This document shows positions 20,970-23,177 of a DNA stretch of 64,000 nucleotides, piece after piece (the first letter of the stretch is position 1; each line of letters begins with the position of its first letter). The notes below the pieces were generated by a model, which did not search any database, had not been told where the DNA came from, and was given only the letters and a program-made list of their open reading frames with translations. The stretch comes from Escherichia phage ST4, in the sequence record OM982646. The stretch is one strand, 5' to 3'. The translations under genes were made by a program, and so were the position numbers.

Positions 20970-21308
20970 TCACTTATAAGCAGTTAAATAGGAGGGAGCT
21001 TTAGTGATGATACGAATAGTTCTGAATGAGTTATCTTCCCATACTCTACTAGTTATTACTTCTACGGGTAAGAAGATATGGAAGTAATCACCTTCAGGAG
21101 CAAGATAACAATCCCCTTCATTAAGGATTACTATCTCTGCATTACTGTTAGTAAGGAGTTTATGTCCTTGTGCAAAGTCTGCTAACTCTCCCGGTTCCAT
21201 TATTAGTGTGGAATTTCCACAGGACAGGATGTGAATGATTGCTTTCTCTGGTTCAGAAGAGTAGTGCAGTAAGTTAGTACCACGCATACCTAAGAGTTTA
21301 ACATTCAT
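20970..21308 (-). CDS. paralog-family small protein, member 6 (112 aa)
   Basis: Shares the core LIMEPGELADFAQGHKLLTNS with neighbouring ORFs. Confidence 0.5.
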   Translation of the reverse strand: MNVKLLGMRGTNLLHYSSEPEKAIIHILSCGNSTLIMEPGELADFAQGHKLLTNSNAEIVILNEGDCYLAPEGDYFHIFLPVEVITSRVWEDNSFRTIRIITKAPSYLTAYK

Positions 21309-21347
21309 GCTTTAGTACCTGTACCGGATAGGGTGATGTGTTTAGTT

Positions 21348-21698
21348 TCATAGAGATGCCTTTGGATAAATGGTGCGTACTCTTTTAAAATCTTTATTAG
21401 GTCTACCATCTATAGTAAGTCCAACGAACCCTTCTTCTATCCTTGGTTCAAAGAACAAGAATGCAGATTCACCAGCGGGTATCTTTATGGATTCTCCTGG
21501 ATTAAGGATGGTTAACTTAGCTGGGCTATTTAGAAGAAGAATGGAGCCACGGGTACTATCTGCTAACTCGCCAGGTAGCATGAGCATATGACAGTCTTGC
21601 GGCAATAACCACTCAATAGCTTTAGTGACATTCCCAGAGTAAAAAGAAACTTCATCCGTATATTGATGTAGGAATAGCACTCTACTCATTGGGTACAC
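21348..21698 (-). CDS. paralog-family small protein, member 5 (116 aa)
   Basis: Core LMLPGELADSTRGSILLLNS aligns with member 6. Confidence 0.5.
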   Translation of the reverse strand: MYPMSRVLFLHQYTDEVSFYSGNVTKAIEWLLPQDCHMLMLPGELADSTRGSILLLNSPAKLTILNPGESIKIPAGESAFLFFEPRIEEGFVGLTIDGRPNKDFKRVRTIYPKASL

Positions 21699-22003
21699 TC
21701 GTCGCTAGATAAATATGAGGAAGGATAGAGGGTAATGAGTCTACCTGTAAGAGTAGTAGCTACCATAGGTTCACTGGAGGAATAGATATATACAGTGACA
21801 TTCTCTGGAACTTCAATGGAAGCATCTATCTTAATAAAGGTAATAGGTACACCTAACATTAAACAGGTTCCGATGAACTCATCTGCTTTTTCACATTGTT
21901 CATAGTACATGGTCATGGGTTTACTTATTCCCAACCAAGGTGATTTACCTACCCCCAGATTAAGGGGACAGGTACTACGACTACTTAAACCGTAGAAGTG
22001 CAT
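21686..22003 (-). CDS. paralog-family small protein, member 4 (105 aa, divergent)
   Basis: Weaker version of the shared core (EKADEFIGTCLMLG). Confidence 0.4.
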   Translation of the reverse strand: MHFYGLSSRSTCPLNLGVGKSPWLGISKPMTMYYEQCEKADEFIGTCLMLGVPITFIKIDASIEVPENVTVYIYSSSEPMVATTLTGRLITLYPSSYLSSDECTQ

Positions 22004-22006
22004 GAC

Positions 22007-22321
22007 TTACTTCCTTACGTAATAGTAACGGTATTCATCATTCTCATAACGGGTATTCCACTGGTATTCATCGGACACCATCATGAAAGGTAGAGCGTCA
22101 TCTGCACTACTAACGGGGTAGATGGAAGGAGGAATAATACATACAACCTTACGGTCATTACCTACTAAGAAGAGTTGGCCCCTTACTTCATGGTAGTCCT
22201 CTAAGGTAGGAACTAGTATTACACGTTGGGAACTACTATCCATGACTTCTTCTAAAGTGAAGTCATTTGTGTACATGGGCGCCCTTTCAGCAAAACTGGG
22301 GATGGTCATTATGAATTTCAT
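22007..22321 (-). CDS. paralog-family small protein, member 3 (104 aa)
   Basis: Core LVPTLEDYHEVRGQLFLVGN. Confidence 0.5.
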   Translation of the reverse strand: MKFIMTIPSFAERAPMYTNDFTLEEVMDSSSQRVILVPTLEDYHEVRGQLFLVGNDRKVVCIIPPSIYPVSSADDALPFMMVSDEYQWNTRYENDEYRYYYVRK

Positions 22322-22685
22322 GGTTGATTCTCCTTCCTTTAGGAATAGGTCTGAAGTAAATGGAAAGTGTTTTATTAAAGACGTTATGGCTAGCTATCAA
22401 TTCCCAACCGTCTATCTTATAGAAGCGTACACAGGGGAAGAACTCATTGAATCCATCATAGCGGGTAAGATCATATACCTTTGGTTCAGTAAGTATCTCA
22501 GTGTTAAGCTGAAGGTTGGATAAGAAAAGAGAACCAATGACCTCATGGGATTCTTCACAGTCGGGTAGGAATACTGATTGCCATGGGGCAATGAACTTAC
22601 TTACTGCTTCTGGTTCCCCCAGGAGATAGGGTTCTTGTTTATGCAGTACACCGGTAATATCAATATCAAAACAGTAGATGCTCAT
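22287..22685 (-). CDS. paralog-family small protein, member 2 (132 aa)
   Basis: Core FLPDCEESHEVIGSLFLSNL. Confidence 0.5.
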   Translation of the reverse strand: MSIYCFDIDITGVLHKQEPYLLGEPEAVSKFIAPWQSVFLPDCEESHEVIGSLFLSNLQLNTEILTEPKVYDLTRYDGFNEFFPCVRFYKIDGWELIASHNVFNKTLSIYFRPIPKGRRINHEIHNDHPQFC

Positions 22686-22886
22686 AATCGCATACCTCCA
22701 GAAAAAGAAATGGGGCAGAGCCTCTCGACCCTACCCCTTACCGTTTTCAATCACGGGTCAGTTCATCCCCCTAGGTACTTATGTACCGTTAGACCTACGG
22801 AGTAGGAAAGGAGCCGGGGAACCCTGACTGTAGAAGTTATTAACTCTTTACGAGTACCGCCACTATCTACTAGGCGGTATGACTAA

Positions 22887-23177
22887 TCACATCATCACCG
22901 TCATCCGAACGCTATCTTTGCTTCGTTTGATGGAGACACTATGAGGTAATTTTGTAAAGAACACAAGAGATGGAATAGACTTTTCTAAAGAGTAAGTTTC
23001 TTGTGGTTCTAAGACTTTAACACCGGGACGGTTTTCTAACAGCATCATTCCAGATAACTCATGGAATGTATCTTCGTCATGGGTAAGGATTATATCACCA
23101 GCCATAAAGCCAGCTTTGGTGTGGTCTATCTCTGAGTATTTATCTTCAGAGTCTTGGACTCTCATATAGATTCTCAA
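22887..23177 (-). CDS. paralog-family small protein, member 1 (96 aa)
   Basis: Core ILTHDEDTFHELSGMMLLEN. Confidence 0.45.
   Translation of the reverse strand: MRIYMRVQDSEDKYSEIDHTKAGFMAGDIILTHDEDTFHELSGMMLLENRPGVKVLEPQETYSLEKSIPSLVFFTKLPHSVSIKRSKDSVRMTVMM

Follow-up and report, generated by a model that had tools for sequence, protein, structure and literature searches.

A six-gene array related to N4 gp70 and gp71 at the right genome end of Escherichia phage ST4

The window analysed here, a stretch of 64,000 nucleotides from Escherichia phage ST4 (sequence record OM982646), is a circularly permuted assembly of a G7C-like, N4-like coliphage (Gamaleyavirus, Schitoviridae) with 86–92% nucleotide identity to matching relatives. 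Six consecutive minus-strand genes in it, p1 to p6, are members of one ancient family, apparently descended from the gp70/gp71 pair of phage N4. The array has not been recognised as one family before. Nor is it one simple operon – p1 is set apart from p2–p6 by a conserved structured RNA and a strong intrinsic terminator – and this RNA is a newly described element, the most novel item of the locus. The genes, with their lengths in amino acids (aa), their best-matching PHROG families and, for three of them, the ratio of non-synonymous to synonymous substitution (dN/dS), are:

p1: 22887–23177, minus strand, 96 aa; subfamily A, homolog of N4 gp70; phrog_7213; dN/dS 0.24
p2: 22287–22685, minus strand, 132 aa; subfamily B, homolog of gp71; phrog_9160; dN/dS 0.19
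p3: 22007–22321, minus strand, 104 aa; subfamily C, G7C gp71.1; phrog_11661, with cross-matches to phrog_16338 and phrog_9160
p4: 21686–22003, minus strand, 105 aa; subfamily D, G7C gp71.2; phrog_12099
p5: 21348–21698, minus strand, 116 aa counted from GTG; subfamily E; phrog_12606
p6: 20970–21308, minus strand, 112 aa; subfamily F; phrog_12606; dN/dS 0.29; the last gene ahead of the terminal repeat

A sequence-only reading of the window had singled out these six open reading frames (ORFs) of 96–132 aa, and all are in place, each with the peptide string quoted for it. They are real genes: over 70 phage records contain an ortholog of each, each matches its own PHROG with E from 1e-40 to 1e-65, dN/dS against the orthologs is 0.15–0.29 across the six (purifying selection), and p1–p4 have good Shine-Dalgarno sequences. 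The start and stop codons of p2–p5 overlap or abut, with a p3/p2 overlap of 35 nt, and the six products are predicted to be small, soluble and mildly acidic (pI 4.6–6.1). From its sequence context (AAGGAG-N7-TTG) the true start of p1 is most likely the TTG at 23177, and the resulting N-terminus, MRIY, aligns with MRLFY of N4 gp70; most GenBank relatives are annotated from an ATG at 23165, four codons (12 nt) downstream. p5 probably begins at the ATG at 21689, for a product of 113 aa, the length annotated for its orthologs.

Homology and predicted fold of the six proteins

The common core that had been recognised by eye is borne out by pairwise, profile, alignment and PHROG evidence, which together indicate one diverged family. 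Key pairs score well above their shuffled controls. In Smith-Waterman comparisons with 500 shuffles, z was 17.6 for p5–p6, 7.4 for p4–p5, 6.8 for p2–p3, 5.0 for p3–p5, and 3.2 for both p1–p3 and p1–p5, and of the pairs made with three control ORFs next to the array, most stayed below z = 1 (the highest, p1–c8, reached 2.6). Arrays were also gathered from 19 related genomes, their ORFs clustered, and the ortholog profiles compared by hhalign. The P-values were 2.4e-13 for E–F, 3.7e-5 for B–C, 7.5e-5 for A–E and 2.8e-4 for D–E, and an extra subfamily, x1, bridges A and C (2.6e-6 for A–x1, 1.7e-5 for C–x1). Among 72 control pairs the lowest P was 0.0022, so that all six proteins of the window fall into one connected network. 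Cross-matches link the PHROGs as well: p5 and p6 both match phrog_12606, and p1 and p3 both match phrog_16338. Similarity across PHROGs 7213, 9160, 11661, 12099, 12606 and 16338 is thus found by cross-matches, shuffle tests and hhalign alike. Alignments of 17 and of 81 members have a conserved motif of strand, acidic turn, helix and strand with a single invariant Gly (81 of 81 sequences).

Some pairs taken alone are not significant (z below 1 for p1–p4, p2–p5 and p3–p6) and overall identity among the six is only 9–20%, but that the six are unrelated small neighbours resembling one another by chance or composition is very improbable given the network of pairwise and profile links against clean controls, the PHROG cross-matches, the Gly kept inside its strand-helix-strand motif in 81 sequences, and the like order of predicted secondary structure and common structural matches of p5 and p1 described below.

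Of the earlier statement that the genes were locally duplicated and diversified, the diversification stands, but the duplication is not recent: paralogs are 9–40% identical and orthologs 75–99%. The split between A and B (gp70 and gp71) is present in N4 and in Achromobacter phages and is older than the divergence of Enquatrovirinae and Rothmandenesvirinae; the duplications are ancient. Compared with N4 itself, p1 is 41% identical to gp70 and p2 27% identical to gp71 (hhalign 3e-7; 5e-11 for p2 against the KP8 homolog). The two N4 genes have the same orientation, divergent from gp69 and gp68, and the same structured RNA and terminator lie between them. They differ from the window in number, with these two members plus a tiny gp72 against six, and the comparison gives the family a name but no mechanism. 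A small gp72-like ORF (MWYVTVKGLPEP...) directly follows the array in N4 (L014) and in some Gamaleyaviruses (L005, L009, L018 and L019); none is present behind p6 in the window.

Structure prediction agrees with a common fold. The AlphaFold2 model of p5, made from the family alignment, has a predicted local distance difference test score (pLDDT) of 83.8, a predicted template modelling score (pTM) of 0.72 and the topology b1-b2-a1-b3-a2-b4-b5-b6-b7-b8. The p1 model is weaker (pLDDT 64) and has the same order of elements minus a1. When searched with Foldseek against BFVD at E ≤ 1e-3, both models matched only uncharacterised proteins of N4-like phages: IME11, KP8, OLB145 (121 aa, the size of N4 gp71), PhAPEC5 and PhAPEC7, EC1-UPM, and Achromobacter phages. 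The two retrieved largely the same set of independently predicted models. The structure check proposed with the original reading thus favours a shared fold, by element order and by BFVD matches, with a low-confidence p1 model (pLDDT 64) and a family-wide alignment shared by the two. The predicted fold opens with b-b-a-b-a-b and continues with four to five strands; the invariant Gly sits in helix 2. The proteins are modelled as soluble, mildly acidic, single-domain alpha/beta proteins of about 100 aa.

The p1–p2 spacer and transcription of the array

The 200-nt spacer between p1 and p2 is better conserved than the genes that flank it, and its conserved blocks reach N4 and KP8. The features in and near it are:

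22757–22878, minus strand: structured RNA core, with helices 2–7, a three-way junction and a near-invariant single-stranded motif, UUAAUAACUUCUACAG, at 22843–22828
22701–22886, minus strand: RNA plus terminator, in the p1–p2 spacer
22701–22737, minus strand: intrinsic terminator (stem 22737–22712 plus U-tract), an 11-bp stem with seven G-C pairs, then AUUUCUUUUU
23258–23286, minus strand: promoter candidate for p1 in the divergent terS/p1 intergenic region, with –35 TTGAAG (23286–23281), a 17-nt spacer and –10 TACACT (23263–23258)

RNAalifold predicts 56 pairs in this RNA. In an alignment of 16 sequences 90.7% of cells pair, and helices 2–7 are paired in 95–100%. Both sides change in 35 of the 56 pairs, across four genera, compared with 19.3±2.2 in shuffled alignments (none of 500 reached 35) and 6–13 in slid controls, and the covariation score of 0.476 compares with 0.113 or less for the slid alignments. 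A covariance model built on the predicted structure locates a single copy in each genome, in every case in the spacer that separates the gp70 and gp71 homologs, with scores of 240–254 bits in Gamaleyavirus, 95–103 in KP8-like phages, 101 in N4, and 38–55 in three genera of Achromobacter phages from outside the set on which it was built. The consensus energy is –35.3 kcal/mol in the sense direction and –25.4 in antisense, and many pairs are G-U, which indicates an RNA of the array's own strand. The motif UUAAUAACUUCUACAG occurs once in the window. A cmscan search of Rfam at E ≤ 1 gave no match in 22686–22886, and ARAGORN found no tRNA.

The terminator ends immediately before the Shine-Dalgarno sequence of p2 (22700–22695). 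It is also annotated in PhAPEC7 and JWAlpha, and N4 and KP8 have terminators of their own at the equivalent place. No promoter-like site was found between p1 and p2. With a terminator, no promoter of their own in the spacer and overlapping reading frames in p2–p5, the genes p2–p6 most likely depend on read-through, as far as the sequence indicates.

A covarying, aptamer-like structure stands ahead of an intrinsic terminator and an ORF, an arrangement known from riboswitches and attenuators. Leader RNAs and riboswitches attenuate transcription, and the put sequence of phage HK022 is a processive antitermination RNA. The spacer RNA resembles these by analogy: it is multi-helical and covarying, its aptamer-like core is conserved and its terminator lineage-specific, and the terminator is followed by the ribosome-binding site of p2. 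It differs in having no Rfam match. For a mutually exclusive antiterminator, helix 6 and the terminator's 5' arm are, judged by eye, complementary over only 6–8 nt. The RNA probably gates read-through into p2–p6, although it could equally be a stable small RNA derived from a 3' untranslated region.

The intergenic region between terS and p1 is highly conserved in Gamaleyavirus, KP8 and N4. Its hexamers, TTGAAG-17-TACACT (TTGCAG-17-TAGACT in N4), make a plausible sigma70-type promoter by sequence. A conserved hairpin, GGGGTGAGATACCCC (23287–23310, minus strand), adjoins the –35-like hexamer upstream and has a T-rich run before it; it is kept in N4 and in part in KP8.

The early promoters of these phages are hairpins used by the virion RNA polymerase (vRNAP). 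The criteria applied to them were a 5–7 bp stem, a 3-nt loop and then a T(T/A)(A/T)(T/A)GGA flank in the orientation of the gene, after the consensus for KP8 (PMC6950046). Canonical copies are found only at 16245, 19974 and 20812 (20812–20824), all downstream of the array, each with a 5–6 bp stem, a GGA loop on the template strand and an ATATCCnnAA-type flank. In coding-strand form these are stem-TCC-stem followed by a TTATGGA-like sequence, and they belong to the left-end early region; the copy at 20812 sits in the terminal repeat, upstream of c7. By position the array is outside the hairpin-promoter units, and its genes are probably not transcribed early by vRNAP. The suggestion in the sequence-only reading that it lies outside the hairpin-promoter units thus agrees with its place at the opposite (right) end of the genome, upstream of the promoter at 20812–20824, and with its own conserved sigma70-like promoter candidate. 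Two other sites were rejected as promoters: a hairpin at 22794–22806, considered as a fourth vRNAP promoter, has no flank and, in half of the relatives, a different loop, and TTAATAACTTCTACAG, considered as a repeated promoter of the RNAPII type, occurs only once in the window.

Cassette exchange at the genome end and distribution of the family

In records with defined ends, the six-gene array forms the extreme right end of the genome, beyond terL (gp68) and terS (gp69). It is transcribed away from these two genes, and the direct terminal repeat comes next, so the array lies between terS and the right terminal repeat, pointing away from terS. The repeat of phage Mimir124 begins 72 nt past its p6 homolog, which places the physical genome end of the window near position 20900. 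The first gene within the repeat is c7 (20445–20768). In Schitoviridae generally, small genes cluster in the stretch from terS to the right terminal repeat, for instance the 29 of LUZ7 (PMC3715699). A run of small genes at this place is therefore a general trait of the group, and the earlier view that a six-member array is unusual in a compact podophage does not hold for this phage family. GenBank record OY979416.1 (Klebsiella phage vB_Kpl_K57alpha1.2) names the homologous array region 'DNA primase | exonuclease', which, given the content of the region, looks like a mis-annotation.

The number of family members per genome varies among related N4-like phages, as the original reading had proposed to check, and so does their content. 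N4 has two members only, gp70 and gp71, and relatives of the window have four to seven: four in G7C, six here and seven in PhAPEC7. There are at least nine architectures among 17 genomes that have 85–92% shared nucleotide identity. The head of the array is fixed in Gamaleyavirus as A-B-C-D, and the tail is variable. The tails that follow A-B-C-D are:

none: G7C
E F: this window and Mimir124
E x2 F: IME11
x1 x2 F: PhAPEC5, PGN829.1 and U1G
x2 F x7 x1: PhAPEC7
E x2: St11Ph5
E x4 or E x1: elsewhere

Cassette x2 was considered as a further family member and set aside, having no hhalign profile link. It encodes 104–110 aa with the N-terminus MKLNTSPYPVQLEV, lies within the array of KP8 and of numerous relatives (examples are L002 5584–5898, L004 5656–5970 and L010 3191–3505), and by its sequence is probably an unrelated insert.

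The junctions between cassettes are conserved at the DNA level. At the end of the array in the window is:

20900–20996, minus strand: array boundary DNA, with the last eight codons, PSYLTAYK, at 20973–20996, the stop codon at 20970–20972, and then the terminal repeat

From 20969 down the boundary reads GATAGCTA..TTTTTGCAT..ATAGCTATG. Across relatives the order is PSYLTAYK, stop, GATAGCTAT...TTTTTGCAT...ATAGCTATG, and it is the same whichever cassette comes last (D, F, x1 or x2). The peptide PSYLTAYK was considered as a common C-terminal motif and rejected: the same DNA closes any last cassette in three frames across the genomes – SYLTAYK, LLFNCL followed by a stop, and ..PPI followed by a stop – and is thus a boundary of DNA. 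An internal D ends in YPSSYLSSDE, and the D of G7C is fused straight onto the terminal SYLTAYK; the 3' end of p4 (YPSSYL) is a recombination junction. One x4 gene is a chimera that bears the N-terminus of x1. The common DNA of the last codons, the shifts of frame, the fusion of D and the x4 chimera point to recombination at conserved junctions and not to recent tandem duplication. Cassettes E, F, x1, x4, x7 and x2 are gained, lost and reordered in this way, at conserved DNA junctions that include the last codons of the array. The boundary DNA may belong to a signal for packaging or for the genome terminus, or may be a hot spot of recombination.

Two known arrangements are comparable. In the hyperplastic regions of T4-type phages, as Arbiol and co-workers reportedly described in 2010, conserved junction elements (PeSL) mediate the shuffling of small-gene cassettes. 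The array resembles these regions in that small-ORF cassettes are acquired, dropped and rearranged, by way of conserved junctions, among genomes that are nearly identical; it differs in that its cassettes are mostly paralogs and its junctions are coding ends (PSSYL and SYLTAYK), not promoter stem-loops. The 29-gene cluster of LUZ7 has the same position between terS and the right repeat, points away from terS and, like the array, is composed of small genes with no known function, variable among close relatives (PMC3715699). It differs in that neither sequence nor profile comparison detectably relates it to the gp70/gp71 family, and in that the RNA was not detected there.

The family is found solely in N4-like phages, by a profile search of 1.84 billion representative proteins and by the BFVD structure search. 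The profile search gave 37 clusters at 50% identity, all of them stand-alone proteins of 65–132 aa without fusions, and each fits a subfamily already seen in the arrays. Word-indexed searches gave 848 and 393 clusters at 90% identity, and among the matches listed, those on long contigs sit on contigs of about 70–73 kb. Searches of Pfam, NCBIfam, PADLOC and PDB sequence profiles with the six proteins gave no significant match. No description of the family, its expression or the spacer RNA was found in the literature, and the phage gene-essentiality screens that were checked omit N4-like phages.

The same layout recurs in the Rothmandenesvirinae JWAlpha, Axy11 and phiAxp-3, which are phages of Achromobacter, and several JWAlpha members score against the family profile. 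By profile and covariance-model comparison, neither the family nor the RNA is detectable in the Schitoviridae LUZ7, LIT1, RPP1, VCO139, S5 and ort11. These six and phage HN02 have other small ORFs, tRNA genes or both at the equivalent position; in ort11 (L039), RPP1 (L043) and S5 (L045), clusters of tRNA genes occupy the site of the RNA and paralog array, divergent from terS. In Burkholderia phage HN02 (L040), four consecutive ORFs of 92–101 aa (ORF95–98) have a strand-NxEE-helix-LLG pattern that recalls the core of the family. Their hhalign values against it (P = 0.002–0.07 for ORF96–98 and 0.25 for ORF95) amount to a weak, motif-like resemblance, and they may be very distant relatives. The right-end cluster of LUZ7 (L041) has a run of abutting 198-nt ORFs at 900–1900 (ORF100–104), possibly a second tandem array of paralogs, with no sequence relationship to the gp70/gp71 array.

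Possible functions and their implications

The interpretation put forward here, with belief and doubt in about equal measure, is that p1–p6 are accessory, non-enzymatic binding proteins aimed at targets of the host, its defences or competitors. It is suggested by their small, soluble and mildly acidic character, the lack of conserved catalytic residues, purifying selection within each subfamily, the turnover of cassettes and the position at a hyperplastic genome end. Binding is favoured over catalysis because a single Gly is the only invariant residue and there is no conserved catalytic constellation. Host RNA polymerase would start at the conserved sigma70-like promoter candidate beside terS, so that the genes would not be early vRNAP genes. 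Transcription would pass p1 and then meet the conserved structured RNA and the strong terminator, and only read-through, presumably regulated by the RNA, would reach the translationally coupled p2–p6. Their products would bind host factors, host defences or competing phages, in diversifying accessory roles.

Several points weigh against this interpretation. The anti-defence or host-interaction role is drawn solely by analogy with other variable small-gene arrays, and no database or fold match (Pfam, NCBIfam, PADLOC, PDB profiles or BFVD) links p1–p6 to a function. The position gp70–RNA–gp71 is kept across two subfamilies of Schitoviridae, which suits a lineage-specific core role better, and many anti-defence genes have spread more widely than this family, which is confined to N4-like phages. 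Confidence in the p1 model is low, and the similarity of the p1 and p5 models is not fully independent given the family-wide alignment behind both. The promoter candidate, TTGAAG-17-TACACT, fits 8 of 12 consensus positions and is under the threshold of the scanner.

A core role is the strongest of the alternatives, though clearly the less likely explanation. Here gp70, the RNA and a gp71-type gene would be a module in phage development, for example in the control of late transcription by host RNA polymerase or in replication or packaging at the right end by terS and the terminal repeat, with the extra paralogs as subfunctionalised copies. Consistent with this, N4, the KP8-like and G7C-like phages and three genera of Achromobacter phages all keep one order: gp70-like gene, RNA and terminator, array of genes of about 105 aa, terminal repeat; family and RNA appear, by sequence, to be restricted to those same groups; and the locus adjoins terS/terL and the conserved GATAGCTAT repeats at the repeat boundary. 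Tail cassettes are lost freely, however, with four members left in G7C and two in N4, and LUZ7, LIT1, RPP1, VCO139, S5 and ort11 have the same replication, packaging and transcription machinery yet no detectable family or RNA.

A bolder form of the accessory-protein interpretation is a regulated effector system, which is unlikely as it stands. The RNA would act on host RNA polymerase either as an attenuator, riboswitch-like or responsive to a protein, or as an antiterminator of the put kind. It would determine whether transcripts started at the gp70 promoter extend into the gp71-family array, whose diversifying binding proteins would counter host defences or competing N4-like phages. If this is true, the cassette-swapping tail would be the evolving 'warhead' part.

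A role as minor virion or ejected proteins, from a second small set of structural genes placed at the right end, is improbable. At the equivalent position in Roseovarius phage RPP1, orf80–82 are annotated as virion structural proteins, but orf80 and orf81 have no similarity to the family (hhalign P ≥ 0.011), the gp70/gp71 homologs are not among the virion proteins given in the records and literature examined, and such high variation in copy number is unusual for structural parts. The Ocr protein of phage T7 is a small, acidic anti-restriction protein that mimics DNA. Like it, p1–p6 are small, soluble, acidic phage proteins near a genome end, but neither the strong negative charge nor the elongated, DNA-like fold of an Ocr/ArdA-like mimic was found.

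Whatever their role, the comparison joins N4 gp70 and gp71 and at least six PHROGs of unknown function into one superfamily. Its fold has no solved relative, and it makes a single structural and functional target in the therapeutically used G7C-like and N4-like coliphages. The structured RNA and terminator are present in N4, the best-studied model of the family of phages, and the RNA is a candidate for a novel control element that acts on host RNA polymerase. The exchange of cassettes at conserved DNA junctions is how the right end of these genomes evolves, which matters for engineering host range and for deciding which genes can be spared.

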